Virus record (IMG/VR): IMGVR_UViG_3300034101_000486
Span: 1-58,016 of that record
Strand: one strand, 5' to 3'
Length of the DNA: 58,016 nt
Origin: a virus
Lineage: Duplodnaviria; Caudoviricetes
Position 1 is the first letter of the stretch; each line of letters starts with the position of its first letter. Position numbers and translations under genes: made by a program. The notes under the pieces were generated by a model, which was not told where the DNA came from, made no database searches, and saw only the letters and a program-made list of their open reading frames with translations. Positions 1 through 58,016 of this stretch are shown here, one piece after another.

Positions 1-517
1 ACTGAGCTTCCCGCTGTTGCCCTATTTCCATATTGCCGTCTCCCATGGTCAGTCGCGACTTAGATGAACGCGCTTGCTGCTCGAGGAAATCCGCCGTATC
101 GGTGAGTTTCTCTTCTTCACGCAGGGGTGCATCGTGATGCGCCTCCTTCATGTATTTCTCATAAAGAGAAATAGGCAGCTTAAAAGCCAACATCTCATTC
201 ACCCCAATGAACCCCACCCAGTCACCCGTCTTAAGGGTTGCGTACTCCCAGCCAGGAACATCTTCTGGCTTCAAAGGCTCGTAGCCTAAGCGGATCCGCA
301 TCTGGATCGAATCACGAGGGTTAGTCGTGGTCAGCCAGCAACAATGCCAGCCGGAGAGTTTCGGTAAGTCCGGTAAAGAGGACTGAAAAAACTGCTGACG
401 GAACATTTCAACCCGCTCATCTTCGGTCACCTCTCGGTTTTGTGTAACTGCGCGATCTAACATCGCACGATTTTCACGACCTTCTCCTGCGGATTTCTTC
501 AAGCGTTCGTCTGTCAT
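1..517 (-). CDS. Conserved head-module hypothetical protein (3'-partial, runs off window start)
   Basis: Not in ORF track; manual translation from ATG at 517 (SD AAAGGAG) gives MTDERLKKSAGEGRENRAMLDRAVTQ...WLTTTNPRDSIQMRIRLGYEPLKPEDVPGW...IGVNEMLAFKLP..., open to position 1; follows scaffold gene. Confidence 0.85.
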   Translation of the reverse strand, partial: MTDERLKKSAGEGRENRAMLDRAVTQNREVTEDERVEMFRQQFFQSSLPDLPKLSGWHCCWLTTTNPRDSIQMRIRLGYEPLKPEDVPGWEYATLKTGDWVGFIGVNEMLAFKLPISLYEKYMKEAHHDAPLREEEKLTDTADFLEQQARSSKSRLTMGDGNMEIGQQREAQ

Positions 518-522
518 AATAC

Positions 523-538
523 TCGCTCCTTTCAGCGA
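523..538 (-). promoter_or_regulatory. RBS-sequestering hairpin TCGCT-GAAAGG-AGCGA
   Basis: Perfect 5-bp stem enclosing the SD of the 1..517 gene; same loop as the hairpin at 1575-1592. Confidence 0.55.
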
Positions 539-547
539 TTGAAACCA

Positions 548-576
548 ATTATAGGGTTTGAAAAATAAAAAGGCAA
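548..576 (-). promoter_or_regulatory. Sigma70-type promoter TTGCCT-N17-TATAAT
   Basis: Read directly on minus strand in the AT-rich gap upstream of the 1..517 gene. Confidence 0.75.
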
Positions 577-590
577 CTCATTCAAGCGTT

Positions 591-1571
591 TCACGCTTTA
601 TTAGTGCGGTCATACTCGGCGTAGCGCTTGACGTATTTCATGCGCAACACGGGATCATCCCAAACGCCCGCTTCAATCAATGCTTGCTTACGCTCGGGAC
701 TGACGTAAATTTCTTTACGCGTTGTAGCTGGCGCGTGCTCACGTCCGGAACCTACTGCGGGACCACCTCTAGGGGTGCGCTCCTCGCGGTATTCACGGTC
801 GTCACGGGTTTGCTTGCGCTCGGCTTTGAACTTTTCAGGCAGGCGGCGAGCTGCGCGTCGGCGCAATTCATCCCAGTATTCCTGCGTCTGTGGATTGTAA
901 CCGTCCTTGGCCAATGATTGGTCAATAGCGATTACGATAGCGGAGTCTTCGTCGCGACCTTGCGAGTCGTACCACTTGTTTTCATCCATGAACTCCTTAG
1001 CGTAGTGCATGGTCATGTCGTCAAGTTGCTGCGCTGTGGGGCGTTGCTGGGCGGCTTGTTGCTTGGCGAATTGGAGTTGCTGCATCTTCTGCATCGCCTG
1101 ATCGCGATACTTCAACGCCTGCGCCACGTCAGCGCCGTTGCCTGCCTCTACCGCCTTAGCGATGACGCGGTCCGCCATCTCGGCATCATGCGACGCCTGA
1201 GCAATCTGCGCATCAAAGCTGCTGAGGTCTACCTGATGGGCTCGCTGCTCTTGAGCAGATACGCGGCGCTCAAGGTCATCATTGCGTTTACGCAGGAAGT
1301 CCAGCTCGAGTTTGTCGCGCTTGATGGCTTGATCGCGGCGCTCCTTGCGCTCAAGTTTTTCAAGTCTGCGTCGCTCGCGGATTGCGTCTCGCTCGTCGTC
1401 ATTACCGTCACCTTCATCCTCCTCGGCGGAAGACTTAGTGCGGTCATCCTCAGCGTCTTCTTGATCATCGTCCTGATCATCTAATTTATCTTGAGTCAGT
1501 TTTGACTCGTCCTCGACGATGATGATTTCTTCACCGCCCTTTTCGTCGTCTTCTTTCATCACATTAGCCAT
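591..1571 (-). CDS. Putative capsid scaffolding protein
   Basis: Acidic N-terminus, long coiled-coil, position between portal/GroES and capsid genes. Confidence 0.65.
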   Translation of the reverse strand: MANVMKEDDEKGGEEIIIVEDESKLTQDKLDDQDDDQEDAEDDRTKSSAEEDEGDGNDDERDAIRERRRLEKLERKERRDQAIKRDKLELDFLRKRNDDLERRVSAQEQRAHQVDLSSFDAQIAQASHDAEMADRVIAKAVEAGNGADVAQALKYRDQAMQKMQQLQFAKQQAAQQRPTAQQLDDMTMHYAKEFMDENKWYDSQGRDEDSAIVIAIDQSLAKDGYNPQTQEYWDELRRRAARRLPEKFKAERKQTRDDREYREERTPRGGPAVGSGREHAPATTRKEIYVSPERKQALIEAGVWDDPVLRMKYVKRYAEYDRTNKA

Positions 1572-1574
1572 AAA

Positions 1575-1592
1575 TCATCTCCTTTCAGATGA
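1575..1592 (-). promoter_or_regulatory. RBS-sequestering hairpin TCATCT-GAAAGG-AGATGA
   Basis: Perfect 6-bp stem enclosing SD of scaffold gene, overlapping the GroES stop codon. Confidence 0.55.
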
Positions 1593-1998
1593 ATGCTCGG
1601 ATTGCCAACGGGTCACCAGTTACCTGCCCGATGATGTCCAAGTCGTTAAAAATCACAAACATTGCAGATTCATCTTTGCCAGGGATCTTTACTTCCCAGC
1701 GGTCGCCGCCGTACTTAGCCACGCGAACGTATTCACCGGCTTTGCACCACTCACCCTCTGGCCACGTCTTCATGTCATTACGGTTCTTGAAAGCCAGCGG
1801 ACCCATGGCAACCACTTTGCCAATCTGAGTGTTCCACTTCTCGGTTTCATTAGAGCCGTGAATATCGATGATGATACCACCAGCGGATTTCTTTTTGGGC
1901 GTTCGAATCTGAATCAGAACACGGCTTCCGAAAGGCTGAATTCCAGCATCTACTGCTGGGAAAGCCTCCGCCATTGCGTCCTCATAAGTCATTGTCAA
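1585..1998 (-). CDS. groES: GroES/Cpn10-like co-chaperonin
   Basis: IQPFGSRVLI...SAGGIII...GKVVAMGP...KAGEYV..AKYGG...FNDLDIIG matches the Cpn10 pattern. Confidence 0.9.
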   Translation of the reverse strand: MTMTYEDAMAEAFPAVDAGIQPFGSRVLIQIRTPKKKSAGGIIIDIHGSNETEKWNTQIGKVVAMGPLAFKNRNDMKTWPEGEWCKAGEYVRVAKYGGDRWEVKIPGKDESAMFVIFNDLDIIGQVTGDPLAIRAFI

Positions 1999-7937: not shown

Positions 7938-9498
7938 ACGGATTTATCCTCGGTTTGTTTGAGTGGCGTGGCTCGTCAATGTCCCGTGCTCGCGGCAACT
8001 CAAACCACCCGTCATTCTTGAGGTAGATGATCGCTTGCGTAAAGGTGTCAACATAGTCATCATGCTCCGCCACTGGGAACTTGCCCAATTGTTTGAGGAA
8101 AGCCGCAGCCCAGCTCACTGGTTGACCGAGGTTCTTTCCTGATTCTGGTACCCACAATAATCCCAGCTCCAAGGTGGGGGCGGCTTGGTGCGCCCGTGAT
8201 ACCTTATCAGCCTGACCTGGATTATAGCCCACGGCGGGCACTTTCGCCAAGCGCAAGTCTTGCAACAGTGATTGCCCACTCGCCTTCGCTTCCACCAAGA
8301 TACGGTCAGGGCGCTTCGCCCGTGAGTATGGCGAGTCCTTCGTCATCCCGCCGTATTCCGTCGTCCAGTCTTTCACGGCTCGTGCCCGCAGGTCTGGATA
8401 GCTCAGGTGTTCGTCCCACGCATCAATCAGCATCGCGTTGCGTTCGCCCTTGTGCGTGAAGATCGCCCAGACCGTGCAGGCGGTCGGGTCGCCCGTGGTC
8501 TTCTCGGTGAACGCGCAGTCGTACGATTGCAGTATGTACTCAAACGGAGGCAAACCTGATGACGCTGGCCACAGGTTGAAGTGCTTGGTCTTGAGGATAC
8601 CGCCCTCGCTCGGCGTGGGGTCTTGCTGCAACTGTCCTGCGGTTCCGTATGTACCCAACAGCTGCTTCAGCGTCGTGATCTCTTTCTCGCCGAACCGCTC
8701 GGGGCAGATCAGCTCGCCCTTCTTTTTGCGGGGGTCGTACGGTCCGAGCACGGTCTTGCGTGACTTGCCGTCCCACTCCGCCGGAATGCAGATATGCTCC
8801 CAGCCCTTGATGTCCTCAAGGATGTGACCGCTGATGTCGCGCTCGTGCAGTCGCTGCATGACGGTCACCATCGCATCGGTCTTCGGGTTGTTCAGTCGCG
8901 TTGACCATACCATGTCAAACCACTCAAGGTCTGACTCCCGCATGACCTCCGACTGCGCGGCTTGAGCGCCGTGCGGGTCGTCAAGTATCAACCGCGAGCC
9001 GCCCTCACCGGTCGCCGTTCCGCCGACTGAGGTCGCGAGCCGGTAGCCGGTCTTGTCGTTCTCAAACCGCTGCTTGGCGTTCTGGTCTCCGGCGAACGAG
9101 AACATGTGCCCCCAGCGCTCTTGATACCACGGTGACTGCAACAGTCGCCGCGTCTTCAAGTTGTCGCGTGTGCTCAGGTTGCCGGAGTACGAGGCGCACA
9201 GGAACTTCTGAGCAGGGTCGGTAATCCACTCCCACGCTGGCCACATTACGCTGACGATTGTTGACTTTGAGTGGCGCGGCGGGATGTTGATGAGCAGGCG
9301 GTGAATGTCGCCCGAGCTAACTGCCTCAAGGTGCTCGCAGATGATCTCAATGTGCCAGCTCGCAATGAACGGGATTCCTGGCTCCACCACGTGCCACGAC
9401 TGCTTGACGAACTCGTACAGCGAGGCAGACGCGTTGCGGCGGTCTTGCTCCCGCTTGACCATCTCAAGCATCACAGCGGGGGACATTGGTGCGTTCAT
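7927..9498 (-). CDS. terL: Terminase large subunit
   Basis: Walker A INIPPRHSKST, Walker B LILDD, nuclease motifs QSYDCAF and HDDYVDT. Confidence 0.95.
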   Translation of the reverse strand: MNAPMSPAVMLEMVKREQDRRNASASLYEFVKQSWHVVEPGIPFIASWHIEIICEHLEAVSSGDIHRLLINIPPRHSKSTIVSVMWPAWEWITDPAQKFLCASYSGNLSTRDNLKTRRLLQSPWYQERWGHMFSFAGDQNAKQRFENDKTGYRLATSVGGTATGEGGSRLILDDPHGAQAAQSEVMRESDLEWFDMVWSTRLNNPKTDAMVTVMQRLHERDISGHILEDIKGWEHICIPAEWDGKSRKTVLGPYDPRKKKGELICPERFGEKEITTLKQLLGTYGTAGQLQQDPTPSEGGILKTKHFNLWPASSGLPPFEYILQSYDCAFTEKTTGDPTACTVWAIFTHKGERNAMLIDAWDEHLSYPDLRARAVKDWTTEYGGMTKDSPYSRAKRPDRILVEAKASGQSLLQDLRLAKVPAVGYNPGQADKVSRAHQAAPTLELGLLWVPESGKNLGQPVSWAAAFLKQLGKFPVAEHDDYVDTFTQAIIYLKNDGWFELPRARDIDEPRHSNKPRINPYAA

Positions 9499-17335: not shown

Positions 17336-18166
17336 ATGACTTCAATCGACAACATGACTAACGATCTGAGCGCTGCTCCGGTCTATCGGGACACCTGCGC
17401 TAAGTGCGGCGGCGATGGTCGCTGGAAGGGCTTCGGCGACTGCACCGGTGACATGCGCTGCACCATGTGCAACGGCGTGGGCTACAAGGAGTTCAAGACC
17501 TCCTCTGACGAACGCGCCAAGGCTCGCGAAGCCGCCGCTCGCGCTAAGGCTAAGAAGGAAGCCGAGCAGCGTGCTCGCGCTGAGCAGTGGTTCGCCGCTC
17601 ACCCCGCAGAAGCCGCATGGATGCGCGAGTCTGCTGAGGGCTTTGAGTTCGCTCAGTCTATGATAGACGCTGTGTACGCGTATGGTCACTTGACCGAGCG
17701 TCAGATGGAAACTGTGCAGCGCCTCACTCAGAAGGCTTTAGAGCGTAAACAGCAGTGGGCTAAGGAACGTGCTGAGCGCGAAGCCGCAGCGCCAGAGGTT
17801 ACCTCTGAGCGTCTTGAGCAGTCATTCCGCAACGCCAAGGCTAAAGGTCTCAAGTGGCCACGCATCACCATGGGCGAAATGGTCATCAAACCTGCTGGTG
17901 AGAACAGCAAGAATCCTGGTGCGCTCTACGTGACTGAGTATGGCGCATACCTCGGCAAAGTGATGAATGGTAGATTCCTGAAGGTGCGCGAATGCGGCAC
18001 TGAGCAAGAGCAGAAGGTCGTTGGCTTGATCAACGATCCCGTGGGCGCAGCGGAAGCATACGGTCACCTGACCGGTCACTGCTGCATTTGCAACCGAGAG
18101 CTGACCAATGCTGAAAGCGTGTCTCGCGGTATCGGTCCAATCTGCGCCGATAAATTCGGCTGGTAA
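17336..18166 (+). CDS. Zn-finger protein with C-terminal DUF6011-like domain
   Basis: N-terminal CxxCxGxG repeats; C-terminal GHCCICNRELT..ES..RGIGPICA. Confidence 0.75.
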   Translation: MTSIDNMTNDLSAAPVYRDTCAKCGGDGRWKGFGDCTGDMRCTMCNGVGYKEFKTSSDERAKAREAAARAKAKKEAEQRARAEQWFAAHPAEAAWMRESAEGFEFAQSMIDAVYAYGHLTERQMETVQRLTQKALERKQQWAKERAEREAAAPEVTSERLEQSFRNAKAKGLKWPRITMGEMVIKPAGENSKNPGALYVTEYGAYLGKVMNGRFLKVRECGTEQEQKVVGLINDPVGAAEAYGHLTGHCCICNRELTNAESVSRGIGPICADKFGW

Positions 18167-18369: not shown

Positions 18370-18486
18370 ATGAACACCCCTAACTGGCCATTCCCGCCCA
18401 TCACTGGTCCTGTGCCTTGGACTGCTAAGCAGATCCGCGAGTATGCGCGTAAGCAGATCGAGCAGACCGAAAAAGCCCCCTTTTAA
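18370..18486 (+). CDS. Small hypothetical protein (38 aa, MNTPNWPFPPITGPVPWT...)
   Basis: Starts right after previous stop. Confidence 0.55.
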   Translation: MNTPNWPFPPITGPVPWTAKQIREYARKQIEQTEKAPF

Positions 18487-18940: not shown

Positions 18941-19161
18941 GCGACAACCAGCCGAAATTAGAAGGTGTCAAATGGTTCACGAGCAGTAAGGGTCTCGTGG
19001 GCATCGTGGCTGTCAGAATTGAGACCGGCGACATCAAGTTCTACATTGGTCCCGCTGATGGTTTTAATGAAGTGATCGACTCTAATCTGATCATGTCACA
19101 CGGAGCGCCCTTCCCTGAGGACGCAGGCTACGCATTGTTTATAAGAGAGGAATTGAAATGA
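18937..19161 (+). CDS. Hypothetical protein (74 aa)
   Basis: ATGA-coupled on both sides. Confidence 0.65.
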   Translation: MSDNQPKLEGVKWFTSSKGLVGIVAVRIETGDIKFYIGPADGFNEVIDSNLIMSHGAPFPEDAGYALFIREELK

Positions 19162-20114
19162 GTACGGTATTTCCTAACCTATCGCTCGACCGCAGCGTGG
19201 TCAAGTGGGAGCAACACCTCGGCACGCAGACGCCGTGGGAGAACCGCAAGGGGTTGTGGTTCAAACGCGAGGATTACTTCGCCCCGCTCGGCTATAGCGG
19301 TCCTAATGGCTCAAAGATGCGCCAGCTGATTTGGTACGTCAATCGCTTCCGCGAGGGCAAGACCCACATTGTCACCGGCGCGAGCATTCAGTCCCCGCAG
19401 CTGAGCATGAGCGCTATCGTCGGTGCGCATTACGGCTTACGCGCTCGGCAGATCGTCTATAGCAAGCCTGAGACTGTGTTGCGTCATGAGAACCCGCGCA
19501 TCGCTTACGGCTTTGATGCTGAGTTTGAGTTCGCCTCTGGTCCGTACAATCCTATCCTGCAGCGCAAGGTGGTTGACCTCACGCAGCCGACGTCTCTGGT
19601 CGTTGAGTACGGCATCACTGTGCCGCATGACCGCTACCCTGAGGAAGATGTGCGTAAGTTTCACGAGGTCGGCGCTCATCAGACAACTAACATTCCGCCT
19701 GAAGTCAAGCGCCTCATCGCTCCTGCTGGGTCTTGTAACTCGCTGACCAGCATCATGCTCGGTCTGAGCCGCGACTCGCACAACATTGATGAACTGTTCA
19801 CCATTGGTATCGGTCCAGACAAGCGCGGCTGGATGCGTCAGCGCCTTGCGTATATCGGCGTGGACATTGACAAGCTGCCGTTCAAGTGGAAACACTTTAG
19901 CCTGCATGACAGCGGCTACAGCAAGTATAGCGATCACTTCACCGGTGAGACTTTTGACGGCATCAGGTTCCACCCGACCTACGAGGCAAAGATGTGGCGT
20001 TGGTTGACACACCATAACCAGTTAGATTATGATGACCACACGGCGTTCTGGATCGTCGGCAGCGCCCCAGATACGAAGATTGTTGAACCTTTTTATACTA
20101 GGAAGCCCTCATGA
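19158..20114 (+). CDS. PLP-dependent enzyme (fold type II), putative decarboxylase acting on amino-acid-modified thymidine in DNA
   Basis: WFKREDY, NGSKMRQ (PLP lysine), PAGSCNS, HPTYEAK; context as in ViI/M6-type hypermodification clusters. Confidence 0.8.
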   Translation: MSTVFPNLSLDRSVVKWEQHLGTQTPWENRKGLWFKREDYFAPLGYSGPNGSKMRQLIWYVNRFREGKTHIVTGASIQSPQLSMSAIVGAHYGLRARQIVYSKPETVLRHENPRIAYGFDAEFEFASGPYNPILQRKVVDLTQPTSLVVEYGITVPHDRYPEEDVRKFHEVGAHQTTNIPPEVKRLIAPAGSCNSLTSIMLGLSRDSHNIDELFTIGIGPDKRGWMRQRLAYIGVDIDKLPFKWKHFSLHDSGYSKYSDHFTGETFDGIRFHPTYEAKMWRWLTHHNQLDYDDHTAFWIVGSAPDTKIVEPFYTRKPS

Positions 20115-22591: not shown

Positions 22592-22592
22592 A

Positions 22593-23695: not shown

Positions 23696-24184
23696 GTGAA
23701 ACATACTCTTGATTTTATTCTGGCTGGAAGCGAAGTAAAGCGCTATCACACCGTAACGACGCTGGTGTCCGAGACTGTCGGTCATCACTCGCACGGCGTG
23801 GCTATGCTGTGCTTGCTCTTTGACCCTATGGCGAGCCGTCAACTGCTGATGGCTGCGATGTTTCACGACCTCGCGGAACACCAAACCGGTGACATACCCT
23901 CGCCGGCAAAACGCGAGTTCGGCATCGGTGGCAAGGTTGATGAGTTAGAACAGCGCCTCATGTACGCTGCCGGAATCGTCATGCCCCAACTCTCCGCTGA
24001 AGACAAGCGCACCCTCAAGCTCGCCGACGTGGCTCAAGGGGCGCTGTTCTGTGCGCGGGAAATCTCACTCGGTAACAAACGCATGCGCCGCGTCTTTGAC
24101 CGCTACATCAGCTACGCGGAAGAGCTGATTCTGGTCGGTCGCGAGCGCGAAATCTTCAACATGATTAAGGACTACGCAGCATGA
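23696..24184 (+). CDS. HD-domain deoxynucleotide phosphohydrolase (YfbR-like)
   Basis: VKRY, ETVGHHS, FHDLAE..TGDIPSP.K, LKLAD. Confidence 0.85.
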   Translation: MKHTLDFILAGSEVKRYHTVTTLVSETVGHHSHGVAMLCLLFDPMASRQLLMAAMFHDLAEHQTGDIPSPAKREFGIGGKVDELEQRLMYAAGIVMPQLSAEDKRTLKLADVAQGALFCAREISLGNKRMRRVFDRYISYAEELILVGREREIFNMIKDYAA

Positions 24185-40368: not shown

Positions 40369-41567
40369 CAGAACGTCCCGCCGTTAATGTTACCCGCCTG
40401 AGCAACGCCCAGCACACCCCACGCGGCAGCTTGATCAACCGCCGTAAACAGACTTGTACCCACAGAAGTGCCGCCCAAGTTGATCAACGCAGATCCGGCG
40501 CTCGTAGCACCCGTACCACCCTGATTCACCGCGATAGGGTAAGAAACACCAGCCGTGTCAGCACGTAAGACGTCAGTGCCGTCGCTGTACAAAATAGCAC
40601 GTTCGCCGCTAGCGAGGATAACTCCTAAGCCCGCCGGTGTTTTTACGGTGAAGGTGTAAGCGCCGCTGGTCTGGTTGTCAACCCAGTACTGCTGTACTGT
40701 GGCGGGCACAATGATGTTACGATTACCGGTCAGCGTGCCCGTAAAGCGATACGCCACGCGGTTGAGTTCAGTACCGGTCAGCGTGTAGTTACCTGTACCG
40801 CCGACGGCAATCACGGTATAGTCAAATGCGAACGTCGCAGATTGACCGAAACCGATCGTGTAAAAGTTGGTACCGTCGGAGGCGATGATTGAAGACTCTC
40901 CTGGCTGAAAGCTCAAGAAAGATGTACCGTCAATCAGCGTAGATCCAGGAGCATCAGCTGAAATCGCACCGCTACCCGAGTTACGCAAGTAGAGGAACCA
41001 GTTATTGCCGACGACTGTGGGGTCGGGCAGCGTCAATGTGCCACCCGCGCCGGTCCAGTTGAACATCTTAGCGCGGTCGGACTGGGTACTCGTGTAGTTG
41101 CTGTTGAACGATGTAATCGGCACTGACTGAGAAAGCAACGCGCCCACGGCTACGATACCTGTACCGGCTAACGCGGAGGCGTTGGCTTCAGAGACCGTAG
41201 CGCCGAACTGCAACGATTCCCAAGTACCCGCCACGGTCGAGTTGTTAGTCAGGTAGACCTGCCAGACCGTTCCTGAGGCAATCGAGACGATCTGAACTCC
41301 GGTGGCGTCCTTGACTACAAAAGTCTGAGCGCCTTGGTTATTGAACAGAACCGTATTACCTGTGCCAGTCTTAGAGGCATCAGGCATCGTGATTGACAAA
41401 CCAGCAGAGGACGCCGTGACGTCCATGATGCGGGTGGCGAGGTTGTTGCTAGCGGAGGTTTCTTCTGGCCAGCTCAGAACAATGTTTGTTGAGAGCGCAA
41501 CTGAACTGTAGCTGATCTCGCTGGGGTAGATATTAGCGCCACCAAAGACGTCGGTATAAATAGGCAT
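40368..41567 (-). CDS. Tail structural protein
   Basis: Beta-strand-rich Ser/Thr/Gly composition, TLTLP repeats, ends GGTF. Confidence 0.65.
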   Translation of the reverse strand: MPIYTDVFGGANIYPSEISYSSVALSTNIVLSWPEETSASNNLATRIMDVTASSAGLSITMPDASKTGTGNTVLFNNQGAQTFVVKDATGVQIVSIASGTVWQVYLTNNSTVAGTWESLQFGATVSEANASALAGTGIVAVGALLSQSVPITSFNSNYTSTQSDRAKMFNWTGAGGTLTLPDPTVVGNNWFLYLRNSGSGAISADAPGSTLIDGTSFLSFQPGESSIIASDGTNFYTIGFGQSATFAFDYTVIAVGGTGNYTLTGTELNRVAYRFTGTLTGNRNIIVPATVQQYWVDNQTSGAYTFTVKTPAGLGVILASGERAILYSDGTDVLRADTAGVSYPIAVNQGGTGATSAGSALINLGGTSVGTSLFTAVDQAAAWGVLGVAQAGNINGGTF

Positions 41568-42199
41568 TACGCTTCACTCCTGTTTGCAGTACGATCCATG
41601 ATACGCTTCAGGTCTTCCCCGTTGAGCGCCTGAGCAGCGCGGTCGTACATCATTTGCCACGTCTGAATACGCTCATCACTTTTGAGGAACGGGGTGGCTT
41701 CGAGCAGCGTTGCGTAAAGCAGCACATCCGGTGCGTATTCAGTGAGCCAGTTGGTTTGAAATTCTTCACCCAGAAAACGCGGCTGCTCGTAGTAAAGTAC
41801 TTCAAGCGTCTGTGCGGTGGCTGGGGTCGGGGTGATAATCCAGTGCTGATAGTCATAGTCAGCATAGTAAGCAGGGCTGCCGGTTTGGGCTTCGTTTGGC
41901 CAGTAGTTGCGAATATATTCGTAAGAACGGGCAAAGATCGGTGTCCCGTTGACAGTCATACTGACGGTATCGCGCCAGCGGTCAGGCTTCAGGTAGACGG
42001 CAACCCCCGCCGAGAGCGGCGTGGTGACGGCACGGATAAAGCCCTCAACCTTGAGTTCACGGGCGATACGGCGCTCACCTAATGTAATTAGGCGAGGTAG
42101 CTGGTCGTAAACGATCTGGTCGCTCTCTTGCGTGAAACCACGTTCAAGGTAGCGACGCACGTCCACCAGCAAACTGTCGTACGTCATGCTATAGCTCAT
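41567..42199 (-). CDS. Head-tail adaptor / tail tubular protein A
   Basis: MTYDSL..D...YLER, G.P.YYA, PTP, PDVLLYATLLEA. Confidence 0.7.
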   Translation of the reverse strand: MSYSMTYDSLLVDVRRYLERGFTQESDQIVYDQLPRLITLGERRIARELKVEGFIRAVTTPLSAGVAVYLKPDRWRDTVSMTVNGTPIFARSYEYIRNYWPNEAQTGSPAYYADYDYQHWIITPTPATAQTLEVLYYEQPRFLGEEFQTNWLTEYAPDVLLYATLLEATPFLKSDERIQTWQMMYDRAAQALNGEDLKRIMDRTANRSEA

Positions 42200-44322: not shown

Positions 44323-47300
44323 TTATCCGTTAGGGAATGCTGCCGTGGGCGGTGTGAAAGTCGTTGTGTATCTGGCGTAGCCTTTAGTGACTCGCAGGTC
44401 ATCTATGTAGCCGTTTAAGCCATTACTTCCTGGCGCGTTTCCATCACCTCCGATAGTCGGTCTACTAGCAGCACCTAAATACGTGTTTGAATCCGTATAG
44501 GTGGAACCTGATTGCGTTCCGTTTATAAACAGTTTGGTACTGGTCCCTGAACGACAAAGAGCGACATGATGCCAACTTCCTGAAGCAGTTGCTACTGTCC
44601 CAGTAATTCTGATTGCGCCATTTAAATAAAAGTTAATATACCCCGCTGATGAATCAAAATAAATTGTTGGGTAGAACCCGTTTACACCACTAGGTCTAGT
44701 ATCATAAATTAAATACGTTGTAGCTGTGCTATTAAAGTAAATCCAAAATTCAATCGTATAAGCACCAGTGCCAAAAGCGTATAAATCAGAAGTTCCAGCA
44801 TTAGGAACAAGATAATCTCCTGACCCATCAAAGTACATCGATGCCGCGCCAAACTTCTTAACGCTTGTAGAAATCTGTGCATTGCCCACAGTTTCTAAGT
44901 CGTTCATCATGGCGTTGTCAAAGATGGCGGCGTTGGTTGCGTTCAACAATAGCGATGTGCCTGTGACTGCTGTTAATGGTGCTGTTGGTGGTGTAAATGC
45001 GCCCGAGTACACAACAGTGTTGGTAATTCGTACATCAGCAAGATAGCCGTTCACCAAGTTAACTGTGGGAGTTCTGCCGCCAACATACAAAGTTCCTGAA
45101 ATGCTGACAGATGGCGCGGTTGCCGCAGTTGCTAACTGTGCGCCATTTAAATAAATTGTCCAATTACTTCCGCTTTTTACAAAAGCCAAATGATGCCATG
45201 CCTTAATTGGAAATGTAGAGCTTGTTGTGTTACCACTAACATTTTGTCCACTTCCGTCAACATACCATTTGATTGGCTGATTTGCTTGACCGCCTGCTAA
45301 TTGGCAAAACCATTGGCTAGAACCACTTGAATAATATGAAACAGGGTCTTGGTCGCTTGAATATGCGTTTAAATAAACCCAAAACTCCACAGTTGCATTT
45401 GTTTGGTTGAACAAATTAAAAGAAGTGTTGGTAGGCGCACTCAAATAATCACCACTACCATCAAAGTACGCAGAGCCGCCATTCACAGCAGGGTTGTACA
45501 CAACCAATGGTACAAATGGACTGAAGCTTTGGACGCTTGGTGTGCCTGCAACGGTAATAGCGGCGGCATTTGAGCTGTTGTCCAAAAAACGATTTGACTG
45601 ACAAACAAGAACTTGAGTGCCTGAAACTGCTGTAATTGGGGTTATGCTTGGTGTAAACGCAGTAGTATATAAAGCCGTTCCAATTACAAGTCGGCAGTTA
45701 CTAATGTAACCTGAAAAATACCCAGAATCAGATGCGTTAATCCGACCAACGCTCATCACGCCAGTTGAATTATTGAACGCGCCACTTACTGTTGATGATG
45801 TTGCGTCTAATGCGCCATTAACAAAGTACCGAACAGTTGTGCCCGATCTAGTAACAGCAATATGGTTCCAAGTGTTAAGCGTACAAGACAACGATGTTCC
45901 AACAACAGCGGCGTTAGTAGCGCCAATACCATAGACAAGCCCAACTTTTCCAGTGCTATTTACATAGAACTGAAATGACTGATTTGACGCAGTGCCACCG
46001 GGCCATTGAGCCAAAACAATGTTTCCGTTTGTTCCAGCAAAAGATGTTGGGTAGATCCAAGCCTCAACAGTAAAATCCCCGCTAATTACATAGTTAGCGT
46101 TGTCAGGCATGGTCAAATAGTCGCTTGAACCATTGAAGTAGTTTGACCAATCCGCCCCATAAGGCGTGAATGTGCCTTGAGTTGTATTGCCAGCACGAGT
46201 GATGACGAAGTTGTTCTGACTGCTGTCTTTGAAGCCGTTGTTGTTGCCGCCACCGTTGTATTGAGTGGTAAGCAGGGATGTGCCGCTGACTGCGGTTAGA
46301 GGAGCTGTAGGTGGCGTGAATGCAGATGTGTAGACTGCTGTGCCTTTGACCATCCTAGCGTCTGCAACATATCCTGTAATCACGGCTGAAGCGTTGTTGT
46401 AGCCAGACACTTTTACAGTTGCCCCTGATGGGTTATTTACAGTAACACCAGTAACTGATGCAGTCGTTCCCCCCGCTACTCCGTTTACATAGATAGTAAG
46501 CGTATTCCCATTACGAACACCTGCAACATGATTCCAAGCATTTGCAATTAAAGAAGTTGAGGATGCGGTATATTGAGTTGTGCTTTGAAAAACTGAAACT
46601 TGAATACTAGTTGCGCTATTTTGATAAATTTCCCAAGCAAAATTGGCGTTTGTGCTTTGACCATTTGAATAATTAAAAACTGAGCCGCTAGTGCCACTTA
46701 GATACACCCATGCTTCAACAGTAAAATTACCAGAGCCGACATCAAACGCAGAATTGTTTGCGACTGTTAATTGATCCCCACTACCATCAAGATACCCAGA
46801 GCCGTATGTCGCCACACTGCTTGGCAGGGTGAATGGTTGGGCGGGGGATACTGCTGTATCACCATTCTTTGTGATGGTGAAAGCGTTTGTGCTGTTATCA
46901 ATGAAGCGGTTGGACTGGCAAGTCAAAAGGCTTGTACCCGAGATTGCCGTCAGGGGTGTAGTGCTTGGAGTGAAAGAGCCTGTATAAACTGCTGTACCTT
47001 TTACTGCACGCAAATTTGATATAAAGCCTTGAAATGGATTACTTGAATTGTCAAAACCATCTATACCAGATGAAGGTCTATTTGCACCACAAGTGTAGTT
47101 AGAGCCTGTATCTGTGTAAGTTGTATTTACTTGTGTGCCGTTCAAATAAATTTTTATTTCAGAACTTTGACGAACAACCGCAACATGATTCCATGTGTTT
47201 AATGTTACTGAACCGCCAGTTGTTACTGAAGTACTGTATTTATAAAAAGAAATTGCGTTGCTTGCATTTATGTAAATACGAATAGCGTCTGTACTTGCAC

Positions 47301-47784
47301 CAGACAATGCCAAAGTGTCAAATATCGTTGCTAGTGTTGAGTTTGTCTTATAAACCCAACATTCAACAGTCCAATCACCAGTGCCCATTGCATTAGCGGT
47401 ATTTGCGCTAACAGCATTTATGTAATCACCAGAGCCATCAAAGTAATTGCTGTAATACCCAGCCTGATACGGATTAAAGTTATTAGACCGCGCATCACCG
47501 TTGATGGTGACGTTGAAGTTGTTGGTTGATGCGTCAGCGTTGAACGGGGTCACAACAGCAGAAGCTCCCGCACCCACGCCGGTGGTCGGCAATGGCTGCG
47601 CAGAGCCGTCTCCGTGCAGCAGCATCGTGACGTAGTTGAACTGCGGGTCACGGGGGAATGGCCACGTGTTTGTGTTCTGCGCAGCGGCTTGCTGGCTCAG
47701 TGTCCAGACCCCAGGAGCGCTTATGCTGTTAGGAACAACCGGAGTTTTGGAGATCACCCCTCCAGGATACTGGTTAGACATCAA
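44323..47784 (-). CDS. Receptor-binding tail fibre with five LamG/ConA-like domains
   Basis: Five repeats of Y[FL][DN]GS[GS]D...TVE.W.Y...W.H.A.VR...GYI...R. Confidence 0.85.
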   Translation of the reverse strand: MMSNQYPGGVISKTPVVPNSISAPGVWTLSQQAAAQNTNTWPFPRDPQFNYVTMLLHGDGSAQPLPTTGVGAGASAVVTPFNADASTNNFNVTINGDARSNNFNPYQAGYYSNYFDGSGDYINAVSANTANAMGTGDWTVECWVYKTNSTLATIFDTLALSGASTDAIRIYINASNAISFYKYSTSVTTGGSVTLNTWNHVAVVRQSSEIKIYLNGTQVNTTYTDTGSNYTCGANRPSSGIDGFDNSSNPFQGFISNLRAVKGTAVYTGSFTPSTTPLTAISGTSLLTCQSNRFIDNSTNAFTITKNGDTAVSPAQPFTLPSSVATYGSGYLDGSGDQLTVANNSAFDVGSGNFTVEAWVYLSGTSGSVFNYSNGQSTNANFAWEIYQNSATSIQVSVFQSTTQYTASSTSLIANAWNHVAGVRNGNTLTIYVNGVAGGTTASVTGVTVNNPSGATVKVSGYNNASAVITGYVADARMVKGTAVYTSAFTPPTAPLTAVSGTSLLTTQYNGGGNNNGFKDSSQNNFVITRAGNTTQGTFTPYGADWSNYFNGSSDYLTMPDNANYVISGDFTVEAWIYPTSFAGTNGNIVLAQWPGGTASNQSFQFYVNSTGKVGLVYGIGATNAAVVGTSLSCTLNTWNHIAVTRSGTTVRYFVNGALDATSSTVSGAFNNSTGVMSVGRINASDSGYFSGYISNCRLVIGTALYTTAFTPSITPITAVSGTQVLVCQSNRFLDNSSNAAAITVAGTPSVQSFSPFVPLVVYNPAVNGGSAYFDGSGDYLSAPTNTSFNLFNQTNATVEFWVYLNAYSSDQDPVSYYSSGSSQWFCQLAGGQANQPIKWYVDGSGQNVSGNTTSSTFPIKAWHHLAFVKSGSNWTIYLNGAQLATAATAPSVSISGTLYVGGRTPTVNLVNGYLADVRITNTVVYSGAFTPPTAPLTAVTGTSLLLNATNAAIFDNAMMNDLETVGNAQISTSVKKFGAASMYFDGSGDYLVPNAGTSDLYAFGTGAYTIEFWIYFNSTATTYLIYDTRPSGVNGFYPTIYFDSSAGYINFYLNGAIRITGTVATASGSWHHVALCRSGTSTKLFINGTQSGSTYTDSNTYLGAASRPTIGGDGNAPGSNGLNGYIDDLRVTKGYARYTTTFTPPTAAFPNG

Positions 47785-48190: not shown

Positions 48191-49126
48191 TCAGAATATG
48201 ATTGTTCCAGACGACGTCCACTTATAAATGCGATAACCGCCTGAAACAGTGATTGTGGGTGATCCGGTCGTTGCTCGGGCAGCATCGTAGCTATCCGCGT
48301 AACGAATGACGACTACGCCAGAACCTCCGGTCGCGGCTACCGCGCCGTTTTGGTTATTACCGCCTCCGCCGCCTCCGCCGCCGAGATTAGTGCCACCAGC
48401 GGTCGGTTGAATAGTAGCGCCGTCTTCACCCGCTGTACCGCCAGTACCGCCGCCGCCCGAGCCTCCTGAGCCACCAACCTTGTTACCGCCGTTGTTAAGG
48501 TAGTTACCGCCACCACCACCGCCAGCATAAGTTACGGATGAGCCAGTGATGCTTGAGGCTGTACCGTTACCGCCGTTACCTGCTGGGTTATTACCGGCAG
48601 AACTAGTAGTACCGACAGCAGAAGCTCCGCCACCGCCACCACCTGAATACGGCTCACCGCCGGTCTGCGAGTTACCCCCTGCGGAACCTTGACCAGCCGT
48701 CCCAGAGCCAGCACTACCGCCAGAGCCGCCATTTAAAATAGCACCGCCACCACCAGAACCGCCAGATGCTCCGTTATTCTGACCTGATGTAAAACCTGTA
48801 CCACCGCCGCCACCACCGGTAGAAGTGATTGAACCAAAAACAGAATCACCACCTGAACCACCGCGTATTGAATTGGTTTGGCTACCCGCTGTACCACCAG
48901 CGCCGACAGTTACTGTGATGGGAGAGCCTGCGGTCACGGAGAATCCAGAAGCCGTCCTGAAGCCACCCCCGCCACCGCCACCTCCACGACCCATACCGCC
49001 GCCACCGCCACCGGCGACCACTAAGTATTCAACTGTCGGCGGGGCATTAACTGAGACAGGCCAATTGCTCGCCCCTTTAGCTTGCATCTGTTGTCTTGAT
49101 GTCCACATTCCTGAGTATTGAGCCAT
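48191..49126 (-). CDS. Glycine-rich tail appendage protein
   Basis: VEYLVVAGGGGG...YAGGGGG...GGSGVVVIRY. Confidence 0.75.
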   Translation of the reverse strand: MAQYSGMWTSRQQMQAKGASNWPVSVNAPPTVEYLVVAGGGGGGMGRGGGGGGGGFRTASGFSVTAGSPITVTVGAGGTAGSQTNSIRGGSGGDSVFGSITSTGGGGGGTGFTSGQNNGASGGSGGGGAILNGGSGGSAGSGTAGQGSAGGNSQTGGEPYSGGGGGGASAVGTTSSAGNNPAGNGGNGTASSITGSSVTYAGGGGGGNYLNNGGNKVGGSGGSGGGGTGGTAGEDGATIQPTAGGTNLGGGGGGGGNNQNGAVAATGGSGVVVIRYADSYDAARATTGSPTITVSGGYRIYKWTSSGTIIF

Positions 49127-53852: not shown

Positions 53853-54829
53853 TTGGTGTAAACCCCGATGCCAGGATTAATCTGAATAGGCGAACCGTCA
53901 TTGTCCCCGTCCCAAGCACGCTGCAAGCTCATAGCCGCTTTCTGCTCAAGTACAGGTATGAGTTGCGGATCGACCTGCGGAGTCTCGGCAGCCACCTCAG
54001 CTGACAAGCCGTCAATAATCGCGTTCAGCCATCGCTGGGGCACTTCCACGTCTTGCTGAAGGTTCGCAGTGTCCATGATCTGACGATGCCGCCAGAGGAT
54101 CAACTGAGCCTGCTCAGCGGCGATAAACGGCGCTGGCCAGAGGTAAACCACCGGCTCAGGCAAGTCACGCTGGAAATAGTAATTGCTAGGGCGACCAGGA
54201 AACACTTTATTGCTCTGGTTGACGTAGCTGTCGCGGTTCAGCTGTCCGAGGGGGATCTCTTGAGGCAGATTGCCTAAGCTGATTACCGCATAGTTGAACG
54301 TGCTCGTAGAGGTAATCCTGAAGTACTGGTAGGGTAGCGCCCCAGAGATGTCAGTCCACGTGATCTCGCCCGCGCTCGCGGTGTCTGTGTAGGTTCCTAC
54401 GGTAACCCAAACTGTTCCGTTCGCGCTCACCTGAAAGGTCAGGGGCGTTGACGCACCGGACCACTCAATACCTACCGTATCGACGACAGTTTGCGTGGTG
54501 AAGTTTACGGTATACGAAGTAGAAGTTGCTACGTACGCGCCGGTGACCGGTTGAATCGTACGATAGTTCAGATTCAGAACTTCAACAGTGCCGCTGGGCA
54601 GCGTGACAATCGGTTGATTCTCGTACATCGGCAGAATCAGCTTCTCAATACACCAGCTAGGTGTTTTGATGCTCGCCAACTCAGAGAGGAACAAATACAG
54701 AGACTCTAAGGCATAGGTCTGCATTTCGGCTGTGATAGCCTGTGCGGGCAGACGACAACGCCTGAAGGCGTGATCTACCACCTTCAGTGCGTTAAATGTC
54801 GTTGCGCTCACTGTGCCGGAATATGCCAT
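53849..54829 (-). CDS. Putative head-completion/adaptor protein
   Basis: MAYSGT...AFRRC, LNRDSY...NK..PGRP, YLWPAP, VPQRW. Confidence 0.6.
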   Translation of the reverse strand: MAYSGTVSATTFNALKVVDHAFRRCRLPAQAITAEMQTYALESLYLFLSELASIKTPSWCIEKLILPMYENQPIVTLPSGTVEVLNLNYRTIQPVTGAYVATSTSYTVNFTTQTVVDTVGIEWSGASTPLTFQVSANGTVWVTVGTYTDTASAGEITWTDISGALPYQYFRITSTSTFNYAVISLGNLPQEIPLGQLNRDSYVNQSNKVFPGRPSNYYFQRDLPEPVVYLWPAPFIAAEQAQLILWRHRQIMDTANLQQDVEVPQRWLNAIIDGLSAEVAAETPQVDPQLIPVLEQKAAMSLQRAWDGDNDGSPIQINPGIGVYTK

Positions 54830-55895: not shown

Positions 55896-55897
55896 AT

Positions 55898-56386
55898 TTA
55901 GCTAGCTTGTGTGAAAGTGATACCAGCGGCGGCGGCGCACATGCCGTAAGCGAACCAGCTAGTACCGTCGCTGATCACCGTGACTGTGTCACCGGCAACG
56001 GCTTGACCGTCAACAAAAGAGATAGTGTCATCAGCAGTACCTGTGTCGCCAGCAACACCGGCAGCGTTAACAGCTTGACCTTTGATGATGTTAGCGCTAG
56101 AGGCGGTAACAACAGTGTAGCTCGCTCCAGAAGGTGCAGCACCCACGATGAATCTGTAAGTCAAACCGGCAGCGGGTGCGGGCAGGGTTGTTGCGAATTC
56201 AGTAGCTGCGCTCAAGAAGAACGTAGTACCGGATTGAGCGGCTGTCAAGGTAGAAGCAGCGGCTAAGGTCGTAACGGCGACAGCGCCAGTCACATTACCG
56301 GTTACGTTGCCGGTCACATTGCCGGTCAAGTTACCGATAAAACCATTGGTGGACGTTACTGGTCCGGAGAAGGTAGTAGAAGCCAT
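55898..56386 (-). CDS. Putative capsid fibre/decoration protein
   Basis: MASTTFSGPV start, (GNVT)n repeat, TLPA..AGL; directly after capsid gene. Confidence 0.65.
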   Translation of the reverse strand: MASTTFSGPVTSTNGFIGNLTGNVTGNVTGNVTGAVAVTTLAAASTLTAAQSGTTFFLSAATEFATTLPAPAAGLTYRFIVGAAPSGASYTVVTASSANIIKGQAVNAAGVAGDTGTADDTISFVDGQAVAGDTVTVISDGTSWFAYGMCAAAAGITFTQAS

Positions 56387-56394
56387 TTTAAAAT

Positions 56395-56475
56395 TCCTCT
56401 CATGCGAGTAAAAGTGAAGTGTCTGTCTGCATGACGTCAGCTGGGACTGTCAGACACTCCGGAAAAACCCAGAAA
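56395..56475 (-). ncRNA. Candidate structured cis-regulatory RNA with possible pseudoknots
   Basis: 10-bp stem plus two extra complementary pairs, one adjacent to the SD (see findings). Confidence 0.45.
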
Positions 56476-56476
56476 T

Positions 56477-56509
56477 ATAAAGAGGGGGACTTGAGTCCCC
56501 CGCCTTTAT
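56477..56509 (-). terminator. Terminator-like hairpin after major capsid gene
   Basis: GGGGGAC-TCAA-GTCCCCC extended by ATAAAG/CTTTAT, followed by U-rich tract. Confidence 0.7.
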
Positions 56510-57423
56510 TAAACGCCAGCAGTACCGTACACGCCACGTGGGTCAGTCCAACCCACTGTGTAACGCTCAGTAGCTTTGTAGCGCATAGAGTCAGTCTCGA
56601 AGTCGCCTTCCATAGACTTCTCCAAGCCGCGACGCATCAACAACTTCAAGCCTTCAGGCGCATCGGTCTGCACCCACCATGCGGTAGATGAAGTGATACG
56701 AGACAAGTTGGCTTGACCTTCAGCCAGCAAGCCCATGGACTTAACTGGGTTGATGTCGTTGTCAGCTGTACCGGCGCGGAGGGCGCTCTTCAACAGAACT
56801 TCGGCTTGGAACACGTTAGAAGGACCGGAAACGATCTTCTTAGGTGTCAAACGGATACGCTTACCGTTGTTGTCAACAGCGTTGCGGATCTGAATGAGCA
56901 TCTGCTCAAGCGAGGTTTGTGACAAGTTAGCGGGCGTGGTCAGCTGATTGCTGAACGTGCCGTTAACGATGGGGTGGGCACTGTTAGTCAACGACACGCC
57001 GTCACCGCCAACATACGCGCCGTTGAAAGCGCGATTCAAGATGTTAGCAGAGAGGGTTTCCTTAGTCTCAATCAAAGACTGCGCCAAGTGCTTGGCGTAG
57101 GTCTGACCGATACGGATGTGGTCGCCGTCCTCAACCAAGACCTTGGTCAAGCTGAATGCCAGACCGTAGACTTTGTAGAGGTAACGCTGCAAGAACAACA
57201 CGCCACCAGACTGGTAAGAAACAGCCATACCGTCGGGCAACTCAGGCGCTGCGCCAAAACCATAAAGAACGGGTTCTTCATGGTAGTTGCGAGGAATGCC
57301 TTTTTGCTCGCGGAAGACCATCTTCCACTCGTCAGCGCGTTGGTCATAAACGCCATCGAACACTTCGTTGAGGATAGGCTCAACTACGGATCTAAAGTCC
57401 GTACTACGCATTGGGGTAGCCAT
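56509..57423 (-). CDS. Major capsid protein
   Basis: 304 aa, strong SD and terminator; FG.AP...DG..V.Y, GGDGV.L...AHP, MEGDFET..MRYKATERY..GW.DPRG. Confidence 0.88.
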   Translation of the reverse strand: MATPMRSTDFRSVVEPILNEVFDGVYDQRADEWKMVFREQKGIPRNYHEEPVLYGFGAAPELPDGMAVSYQSGGVLFLQRYLYKVYGLAFSLTKVLVEDGDHIRIGQTYAKHLAQSLIETKETLSANILNRAFNGAYVGGDGVSLTNSAHPIVNGTFSNQLTTPANLSQTSLEQMLIQIRNAVDNNGKRIRLTPKKIVSGPSNVFQAEVLLKSALRAGTADNDINPVKSMGLLAEGQANLSRITSSTAWWVQTDAPEGLKLLMRRGLEKSMEGDFETDSMRYKATERYTVGWTDPRGVYGTAGV

Positions 57424-57436
57424 AATTTAGCCCTCC

Positions 57437-58016
57437 TTAAACAGAATTCACAGCAGCTTTGTAGTGGTGTTCGTTGATACGAACAGACACAACTACATAC
57501 GCGTCAGTGAGGGAGTCAGTGATTTCATATCCAAAGCCAGTGATCTGGAATTGACCAGAAGTAGCTTGAATGGCGGTCAGGTAAGTGTTTGACAAACCTG
57601 TTTGTGTTGAGCCGCCTGGAGAGGCGACTGTCCAATCACATTCTTCGCCGACAGCTGTTTGCACAGTTGTACCAGCGGAAGGATTGTTGTATTGAACATC
57701 AAACAGCGTTTCAGGGTCATCATACACCCAAGCCGTAATCTCCGTACCAGTCGTGCCAGAAGGCCAGAAAGGAGAGATTGAAGGCTTGCCGGTGGCGTCC
57801 AAATACTGCACACCTGCGAAGATGCCCAGCAAAGAAACTCCATCGGTTGTGCCTGAACGAGTACCGTCAGACGTGCCGAGTTGAATAACGCCGTTATCAG
57901 TCAACTTAACGGGGTCACCGCTGAAGATGTTGGCTGCGTAGGTGCTAGCGATTACATAGGCTTTCGGGCGCATCTGACCACTGTTGTGGTAAGACGCACG
58001 GAAGCCAAAGGGTGCG
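57437..58016 (-). CDS. Capsid cement/decoration-type protein (5'-partial)
   Basis: Frame stays open past the ORF-track Met to the window end (APFGFRASYHNSGQMRPKAY...IFSGDPV...V.DDP..LF.VQ); immediately upstream of MCP. Confidence 0.7.
   Translation of the reverse strand, partial: APFGFRASYHNSGQMRPKAYVIASTYAANIFSGDPVKLTDNGVIQLGTSDGTRSGTTDGVSLLGIFAGVQYLDATGKPSISPFWPSGTTGTEITAWVYDDPETLFDVQYNNPSAGTTVQTAVGEECDWTVASPGGSTQTGLSNTYLTAIQATSGQFQITGFGYEITDSLTDAYVVVSVRINEHHYKAAVNSV

Follow-up and report, generated by a model that had tools for sequence, protein, structure and literature searches.

A phage genome purged of GGCC except within TGGCCA: a probable compositional footprint of thymidine hypermodification

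Thymidine hypermodification of phage DNA is known to block many restriction enzymes, and its sequence context has been inferred only from digests of a few cultured phages. In Flodman 2019 (PMC6449724), the DNA of phages M6 and ViI is cut by HaeIII and resistant to MscI (TGGCCA), with a TG annotation; TG and TC are enriched among the resistant sites, and the M6 kinase is stated to act on TG. A 2026 paper in Nucleic Acids Research (PMC13458397) gives the context of alpha-dapT as TG >> TC > TT/TA. How hypermodified phages cope with recognition sites that contain no T had not previously been addressed. Here we describe the complete 58,016-bp phage record IMGVR_UViG_3300034101_000486 of IMG/VR (CheckV completeness 100%, GC content 53.9%), the whole of which is called the window below. 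It encodes a putative 5-hydroxymethyl-dU (5-hmdU) hypermodification module, and its few GGCC sites are almost all TGGCCA. A first-pass annotation, made from the letters of the window, had pointed to this pattern and related it to the reported hypermodification of ViI and M6 DNA at TG and TC steps, a premise for which the two papers provide a real basis.

The window contains exactly 18 GGCC sites, where 305.5 would be expected on base composition and 233.3 and 212.2 under Markov models of first and maximal order, i.e. an observed/expected ratio (O/E) of 0.06-0.08 under the three models. When synonymous codons were shuffled 300 times within each of the 64 called genes, 216.9 +/- 11.2 in-gene sites were expected and 16 observed. 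GGCC thus shows what defines restriction-site avoidance, namely a palindrome O/E that stays far below 1 after correction for composition and codon use. Fifteen of the 18 sites are TGGCCA; the remaining three, GGGCCA at 46001 and AGGCCA at 49059 and 57762, read TGGCCC or TGGCCT on the minus strand, and the NGGCCN matrix of the window is filled at T-A (15), A-A (2) and G-A (1) only. TGGCCA itself is undepleted, its 15 occurrences comparing with 16.2, 15.3 and 15.0 expected under the composition, first-order and maximal-order models. By codon shuffle, 13 in-gene TGGCCA were observed versus 20.3 +/- 4.2 expected, 3 GGCC with a T flank on one strand versus 90.7, and none without a T flank versus 105.9; with a base rate of 9.4%, the probability of at least 15 of 18 sites being TGGCCA is 2e-13. 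The genome therefore avoids every GGCC other than TGGCCA, not GGCC as such, and the pattern is confirmed as real and far beyond chance. The counts made by eye in the first-pass annotation (about 18 GGCC where a few hundred would be expected, about 15 of them TGGCCA, and three others, at the same positions, keeping a 5' T on one strand) proved exact, and after codon correction GGCC is not near expectation nor are its flanks random.

Most of the surviving sites are imposed by protein sequence. Thirteen of the 18 lie at Trp-Pro dipeptides (12 in the gene set, plus site 1760 in a Cpn10-like gene), and at 10 of these 13 Pro is encoded by CCA; the codons CCC, CCT and CCT at the remaining three correspond exactly to the three sites that are not TGGCCA. 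Within the gene set CCA is used at 9 of 12 Pro codons that follow Trp, versus 136 of 854 (15.9%) elsewhere in the window (P = 9e-6). The Trp-Pro dipeptide is undepleted (12 observed, 13.3 expected), and no GGG, AGG or CGG codon precedes Pro anywhere in the window genes. The five unforced sites, four of them coding (909, 21355, 28667 and 36092) and one intergenic (18386), are all TGGCCA; conservation in relatives is lacking for three of these (909, 21355 and 36092), as would be expected if the word is tolerated rather than functional. The predominance of Trp-Pro, the preference for CCA and the TGGCCA context of the four unforced coding sites had all been anticipated, and the comparison of Pro codons after Trp and elsewhere, proposed as a check, gave the outcome foreseen; the intergenic site is an addition.

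Hypermodification of thymidine in this phage is suggested by its gene content. The window encodes two components expected of a 5-hmdU hypermodification system, a 5-hmdU DNA kinase (PF18723) and a phosphate-displacing transferase (PF18724), in a cluster of genes listed in Table 1. The thymidylate synthase homologue of this cluster is presumed from its context to be a hydroxymethylase rather than a methylase, two activities that sequence alone cannot separate. No DNA methyltransferase domain was found in 69 open reading frames (ORFs) of the window with Pfam or in 50 proteins with PHROGs, and no radical-SAM partner of the module was found in the window. Sequence searches of the PDB with two proteins of the transferase region gave no match, nor did a megablast search of 8 kb of the window against INPHARED. 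The INPHARED relatives of the window DNA polymerase are all below 40% identity, and the closest named phages with the kinase domain are Bordetella phage LK3 and the YuA/M6 group, at approximately 30-32% identity over the helical domain.

Relatives with and without these genes provide a natural experiment, in which the same structural genes occur in mosaic genomes with the module present or absent. A search with the large terminase gave 512 IMG/VR relatives, of which 80 loci were kept. PF18723 was present in 4 of the 43 relative records searched. Six of these records have a completeness of at least 98%; three of the six carry PF18723, and the structural genes are common to all of them, at about 50-98% protein identity. 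The block at 12811-30267, which comprises primase, helicase, hypermodification genes, polymerase and recombination genes, occurs only in the three kinase-positive relatives (G008, G011 and G018) and represents a swappable module: unrelated replication modules take its place in three relatives whose structural proteins are 65-98% identical, namely G029 (glycosyltransferase, dUTPase and PhoH), G036 (DnaE-type polymerase and GcrA) and G043 (YqaJ and DUF3987). No homologue of thymidylate synthase and no kinase, transferase or methyltransferase was found in 59 of the 61 ORFs of these replacement modules, two ORFs at piece boundaries being left out.

The fate of TGGCCA follows the module. In what follows, counts separated by a slash are observed/expected, and GGCC sites are classed as TGGCCA (T flank on both strands), one-T or no-T. 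Under a dinucleotide model, the three classes stand at 15/15.3, 3/89 and 0/129 in the window, 16/15.3, 22/80 and 3/105 in G008, 18/15.5, 1/86 and 0/119 in G011, and 11/8.8, 0/37 and 0/39 in G018, a genome of 42% GC. The module-lacking G029 (L094-L096) is also purged of GGCC, and here TGGCCA is lost as well (4/13.8, 20/44 and 2/35); the other two module-lacking genomes are not comparably purged and give 21/15, 99/89 and 45/128 (G036, L097-L099; all GGCC 165/232) and 42/21.5, 191/136 and 182/216 (G043; all GGCC 415/374). With 60 codon shuffles for each genome, TGGCCA amounts to 14/19.4, 15/19.9, 17/19.5 and 10/9.3 in the module-bearing genomes and to 4/12.7 in G029. Codon choice varies in the same way: CCA is used after Trp at 5 of 8, 10 of 10 and 9 of 9 positions in the three module-bearing relatives, and at 2 of 10 in G029, where CCA makes up 55% of Pro codons, and 2 of 20 and 0 of 11 in the other two module-lacking genomes. 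At orthologous Trp-Pro positions, the module-bearing genomes have CCA (TGGCCA) and the module-lacking genomes CCG, CCC or CCT (CGGCCA, GGGCCA or AGGCCA).

A search with the kinase domain extended this comparison to 48 loci, 47 of which have at least 10 GGCC expected. Of these 47 kinase-positive loci, 21 are GGCC-depleted (pooled TGGCCA 62/55.2, one-T 11/308.9, no-T 1/434.1), and 20 of the 21 keep at least one TGGCCA. L146, a distant lineage with 47% kinase identity in which PF18724 is present, shows the same distribution (4/3.1, 0/20.8 and 0/34.6). Depletion of GGCC was seen at 29 of the 80 terminase loci: 23 keep TGGCCA (116/72.1; one-T 53/412; no-T 0/589), and six, all of the 42%-GC G029 type, lose it (2/21.1; one-T 20/73.7; no-T 8/64.2). 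Cultured phages of Bacillus subtilis, a species with strains that carry the GGCC enzyme BsuRI, offer a parallel case. In phage SBSphiC, which is PF18723-positive and whose DNA is probably hypermodified judging from its kinase gene, GGCC stands at 30/163, with TGGCCA 12/12.0, one-T 17/64.4 and no-T 1/86.2. SPO1, of the same family and host species, has no PF18723; its record annotates a dUMP hydroxymethylase, and we take its DNA to contain 5-hmdU. In its first 100 kb (L157 and L158) GGCC is reduced to 2/177 (TGGCCA 1/18.1, one-T 1/77.5, no-T 0/81.8) and CGCG is absent versus 25 expected. The Trp-Pro dipeptide is missing from all 116 ORFs of this stretch, so that GGCC avoidance in SPO1 extends to the protein level. 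Since SBSphiC keeps TGGCCA and SPO1 purges it, the kinase pathway, and not 5-hmdU alone, would be what spares this word. GGCC-purging genomes without the modification genes, G029 and SPO1, thus do not share the tolerance of TGGCCA that all GGCC-purging genomes with the module show, an outcome that would have told against the first-pass reading had it been otherwise.

The loss of sites in the window is not confined to GGCC. In its genes, codon shuffling gave 1/73.4 for CCSGG, 0/21.4 for GGCGCC, 2/33.7 for GCGCGC, 1/27.6 for CGCGCG, 1/21.1 for CCGCGG, 0/14.9 for GAGCTC, 1/14.6 for AAGCTT and 0/12.7 for AACGTT. TCGA (88/232), CCWGG (48/128) and GGWCC (43/87) are also reduced, and GATC (203/226), CCGG (205/235), GCGC (462/409) and CGCG (336/374) lie close to expectation. 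An O/E below 0.2 is found for 7 of the 8 six-base palindromes that are T-free, for 7 of the 40 with T but no TG, and for none of the 16 that contain TG (64 in all). Splitting palindromes by T content, as had been suggested at the outset, thus identifies T-free sites as those that are lost. Three T-containing sites had been called common at first sight; this is true of GATC, while CCWGG and GGWCC are depleted 2-2.6-fold.

The nature of the flanking step also matters. The following counts, given as both-T, one-T and no-T, are pooled over the four module-bearing genomes unless stated otherwise. Rescue is seen for cores that start with G, at which a flanking T makes a TG step: TGCGCGCA (GCGCGC core) gives 10/8.9, 3/47.7 and 0/64.4, and TGCCGGCA (GCCGGC core) 5/4.6, 9/24.9 and 1/33.7. 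Cores that start with C form a TC step and are not rescued: TCCSGGA (three genomes) gives 0/11.1 (P = 1.6e-5, pooled P-values overstating independence because some pooled sites are probably orthologous between close relatives), 1/71.3 and 4/115.2, TCGCGCGA gives 0/5.9, 4/39.2 and 1/65.2, and TCCGCGGA gives 1/3.1, 3/20.4 and 0/34.1. On composition, TG would thus be the context that is shielded, in agreement with the TG preference in the literature on M6 and alpha-dapT. Of the TG/TC context put forward in the first-pass annotation, the TG part holds; TC flanks give no rescue, as the both-T counts of TCCSGGA and TCGCGCGA show.

We consider it likely that T-free sites are purged from this genome because thymidine hypermodification cannot cover them, and that such a site is spared if it is bordered on both strands by a modified T belonging to a TG step. 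The phage would build its DNA with 5-hmdU, of which a subset, chiefly T before G, would be converted to a bulky hypermodified thymidine by the 5-hmdU DNA kinase, the amino-acid:DNA transferase and the PLP (pyridoxal phosphate) enzyme. Recognition sites without T could not carry this shield, and host type II restriction, presumably by a HaeIII/BsuRI-like GGCC enzyme and others, would therefore purge them by synonymous change. In TGGCCA, each strand has a T immediately 5' of the site, where it forms a TG step; both half-sites of a symmetric enzyme would then face a modified major groove and cleavage would fail, whereas a single flanking T would be insufficient to shield GGCC. As Trp-Pro forces TGGCC, selection would fix Pro as CCA and so complete the shield. 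That T-free sites are lost except where each strand has a modified T of a TG step alongside had been the central proposal of the first-pass annotation, and it is largely supported by the presence of the module, the relatives, the orthologous codons and the GCGCGC and GCCGGC cores; it fails for some TG-flanked sites.

Several observations weigh against this explanation or restrict it. Two TG-flanked words, TGAGCTCA (0/4.2) and TGGCGCCA (1/4.6), are not rescued in the pooled genomes; flank rescue depends on the enzyme, and rescue by TG flanks is not universal. CCWGG survivors in the window are TCCTGG/CCAGGA in 38 of 50 cases (e.g. at 2008, 6146 and 9377), with TCCTGG at 38/23.3 versus 12/78 for other 5' flanks, and 4 of the 50 only are without a T flank on either strand; TCCTGG is in excess in G008 (31/21) and G018 (20/11) too. 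This flank forms a TC step, and it lies on the strand in which the central TG is found; a rule based purely on TG would not predict it. The purge is less complete in G008 than in its relatives, with 22 one-T and 3 no-T sites kept in spite of the module. Conversely, G036 lacks the module and still shows 43 no-T GGCC versus 121.5 expected by codon shuffle, with one-T and both-T sites at expectation, and T flanks at 24 of 27 surviving CCWGG (12 of them TCCWGGA). A modification that has escaped recognition, or an enzyme that prefers certain flanks, could be the cause. SBSphiC strongly avoids the TG-containing words GTGCAC (0/17) and CACGTG (2/19). In a 41-kb sample of Nodularia phage kac65v162, which has a strong PF18723 match, TGGCCA stands at 2/8.0; genes for ThyX, dTMP kinase and methyltransferases are present in this phage, which may therefore not hypermodify T. 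At loci without GGCC depletion, the dinucleotide model generally gives expectations for T-flanked GGCC that are about 1.3-1.5-fold too low. Finally, the window, G008 and G011 are close relatives that share many sites, so that the data amount to about 4 independent lineages, not dozens.

The main rival, which we regard as improbable, is a restricting enzyme (or several) with an intrinsic flank requirement, effectively VGGCC, for which TGGCCA is no target regardless of modification. In formal terms, the pattern of the window equals avoidance of an asymmetric word, VGGCC/GGCCB, and the mild no-T depletion and T-flanked CCWGG survivors of the module-lacking G036 fit such a preference. Nevertheless, the exemption tracks the phage module and not GC content or presumed host, being found at 54% and 42% GC, in L146 and in a Bacillus phage, and GGCC purgers without the module also lose TGGCCA, among them SPO1, which shares its host species with SBSphiC. 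The same T..A exemption at GCGCGC and GCCGGC would moreover require three unrelated enzymes sharing one quirk, and we know of no VGGCC-specific enzyme. Since the exemption goes with the module at differing GC contents and on differing hosts, and is also seen at two further cores, this rival is disfavoured. Overlapping methylation is a known way of blocking HaeIII-type cleavage, and many window ORFs have no assigned function, so that a TGGCCA-specific methyltransferase of the M.MscI/BalI kind, encoded by the phage or acquired in the host, might protect these sites from a GGCC endonuclease. The domain searches described above revealed no such protein, and methylation of TGGCCA would account neither for the sparing of TGCGCGCA and TGCCGGCA nor for the way in which the exemption varies together with the 5-hmdU module in four lineages, which makes it very unlikely. 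Least credible of all is that TGGCCA is kept as a functional motif, for binding or for packaging, or that the pattern results from codon or mutational bias: 10 of the 15 sites do lie at conserved Trp-Pro positions, but these are conserved with other Pro codons in module-lacking relatives too, the word is at expectation rather than enriched, the unforced sites at 909, 21355 and 36092 are not conserved, and synonymous-codon shuffles reject codon bias as the cause.

Shielding of T-free sites by adjacent hypermodified thymidine, the explanation preferred here, has wider implications. The data suggest that T-free sites are purged and that protection of a site reaches one base past its ends and requires each strand to have a TG step there; plain sequence thus appears to record where a phage modifies its DNA. 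With more reserve, we lean towards the view that avoidance spectra can serve as a sequence-only decoder of hypermodification. In phages with a 5-hmdU kinase, HaeIII-, BssHII- and NaeI-like enzymes would be defeated at a T-free site if, and only if, each strand has a modified T of a TG step directly next to it, and the avoided words and spared flanks together would reveal, with no chemistry needed, the hypermodification of an uncultured phage and the context in which its kinase acts (TG, not TC). If confirmed, this would allow hypermodified DNA, and its context, to be recognised inexpensively by computation in metagenomic phages, predict which commercial enzymes fail at which sites on hypermodified DNA, and mean that DNA modification can reshape synonymous codon choice, as in Pro CCA after Trp.

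Table 1. Coordinates of the hypermodification genes and of individual sites in the window.
Feature	Position	Strand	Remarks
Putative PLP-dependent enzyme of hypermodification cluster	19158..20114	+	phrog_3650; weak NCBIfam PLP fold-type II matches (E 7e-8), far below curated cut-offs; no Pfam match
Amino acid:DNA transferase (ADDT)	20111..21106	+	PF18724 67.1 bits, cut-off 26.2
P-loop kinase ORF (5-hmdU DNA kinase N-terminal part)	21103..21678	+	PF18748 25.8 bits, just below cut-off 27; phrog_761, thymidylate-kinase-like
5-hmdU DNA kinase helical domain	21665..22591	+	PF18723 151.8 bits, cut-off 25
Thymidylate synthase homologue, presumed dUMP hydroxymethyltransferase	22494..23630	+	PF00303 80.6 bits; phrog_5131 E 6e-105
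HD-domain 5'-deoxynucleotidase/dNTPase	23696..24184	+	PF12917, PF13023
DNA polymerase, travels with hypermodification genes	24395..26293	+	phrog_1252 E 8e-160; only in kinase-positive relatives
TGGCCA, unforced (TTG GCC AAG)	908..913		in minus-strand gene 591-1571; not conserved in relatives
TGGCCA, Trp-Pro (TGG CCA)	1759..1764		in Cpn10-like gene 1585-1998 (-); TGGCCA in G008/G011/G018, CGGCCA in G036, GGGCCA in G043
TGGCCA, Trp-Pro (TGG CCA)	8566..8571		in large terminase gene
TGGCCA, Trp-Pro (TGG CCA)	9238..9243		in large terminase gene; AGGCCA/CGGCCA/GGGCCA at ortholog in module-lacking relatives
TGGCCA, Trp-Pro (TGG CCA)	17855..17860		in gene 17336-18166 (+)
TGGCCA, intergenic, unforced	18385..18390		
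TGGCCA, unforced (CAT GGC CAT)	21354..21359		in P-loop kinase gene; not conserved in relatives
TGGCCA, Trp-Pro (TGG CCA)	21956..21961		in 5-hmdU kinase helical-domain gene
TGGCCA, unforced (ATG GCC ACG)	28666..28671		in Cas4-like exonuclease gene
TGGCCA, unforced (GCT GGC CAG)	36091..36096		in minus-strand gene 35028-36467; not conserved in relatives
TGGCCA, Trp-Pro (TGG CCA)	36797..36802		
TGGCCA, Trp-Pro (TGG CCA)	41466..41471		orthologous site CGGCCA in G036, GGGCCA in G043
TGGCCA, Trp-Pro (TGG CCA)	41897..41902		
TGGCCA, Trp-Pro (TGG CCA)	47659..47664		in laminin-G repeat tail gene
TGGCCA, Trp-Pro (TGG CCA)	54134..54139		
Non-exempt GGCC, Trp-Pro TGG CCC	46000..46005	-	overlaps only CCSGG site of genome
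Non-exempt GGCC, Trp-Pro TGG CCT	49058..49063	-	
Non-exempt GGCC, Trp-Pro TGG CCT	57761..57766	-	TGGCCA in G011
TGCGCGCA	31042..31049		GCGCGC site, of which there are just 2 (in-gene expectation 33.7)

Some further features of these genomes may be mentioned. The 5-hmdU DNA kinase of the window is split into two overlapping ORFs (21103-22591), the P-loop part followed by the helical domain; G008, G011 and G018 have a frame of about 310 amino acids at the helical domain and a P-loop ORF that matches separately, and the open frame around the helical domain measures 515 amino acids in Bordetella phage LK3 and 652 in SBSphiC. In the stretch 45998-46005, the sole CCSGG of the window overlaps the GGGCCA at 46001; both lie inside a 1153-residue laminin-G-repeat tail gene (44323-47784) with a GC content by codon position of 0.44/0.53/0.38, unlike the remaining genome. 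No full-length homologue of it occurs in the six relatives, the best matches (G011 and G043) covering 5-8%, and the gene looks recently acquired. A gene for a Cpn10/GroES-like co-chaperonin (PF00166, E 8e-9; 1585-1998, minus strand) adjoins the portal gene. The word ACCGGT occurs 43 times in the window, versus 12-16 expected by composition and 28 by codon shuffle; the excess is largely due to ACC-GGT (Thr-Gly) codon pairs, yet the 41 in-gene sites exceed the codon-shuffle maximum of 40. CCCGGN does not occur in the window at all.

Among the module-lacking genomes, G043 removes CCWGG entirely (1/144, with TCCTGG 0/31), and G029 is without many TG-containing six-base palindromes (CACGTG, CAGCTG, CCATGG and CTGCAG all 0). 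The idea that such palindromes are spared only in module-bearing genomes was partly discriminating: 0 of 16, 0 of 16, 0 of 16 and 1 of 16 are strongly depleted in these, versus 7 of 16 in G029, 1 of 15 in G036 and 2 of 15 in G043. A recent origin of the structural module of G036 from a module-bearing lineage was considered and dropped, its GGCC classes being alike in both genome halves. The Nodularia phage and LK3 (L153, 40,954 bp) proved unsuited as further tests, the former having no clear exemption and probably an ordinary T supply (ThyX), and the latter not purging GGCC (388/384). LK3 shows TCCGGA 0/20.6, TCGCGA 0/20.4, CGGCCG 0/44 and TGCA 11/118, an avoidance profile unlike that of the window despite the same kinase and transferase families.

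Restriction avoidance is a known kind of phenomenon, and what is new here is avoidance probably shaped by DNA modification and seen as a compositional footprint; a literature search of limited depth turned up neither a TGGCCA or flank exemption from avoidance nor a genome-composition footprint of hypermodification. As in the classical avoidance of GGCC by Bacillus subtilis phages, a 4-bp and several 6-bp palindromes are made strongly rare through synonymous codons. The window differs by its sharp TGGCCA exception (TGGCCA being at 1/18.1 in SPO1) and, whereas SPO1 dropped Trp-Pro dipeptides, the phage of the window keeps them and fixes the Pro codon instead. With the hypermodification systems of M6, ViI, PhiW-14, SP10, PaMx11 and SH-Ab 15599 it has in common a thymidylate synthase homologue, a 5-hmdU DNA kinase (PF18748/PF18723), PF18724, a PLP-type enzyme and an HD dNTPase. 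It differs from the M6/ViI type in a kinase whose helical domain is distant in sequence from the YuA/M6-like and LK3 proteins (about 30-32% identity) and which is split in two ORFs, and in that no radical-SAM partner was found; the work published on such systems is biochemical. The closest idea is found in Flodman 2019, where it is speculated that modified T in a flanking TG (e.g. tGCCGGC) makes a GC-only site resistant, a suggestion offered there for a few resistant digests and stated not to explain all sites. The phage described here instead presents an evolutionary signature with quantitative rules, in that both flanks are needed for GGCC and GCGCGC, TG works and TC does not, and rescue depends on the enzyme.

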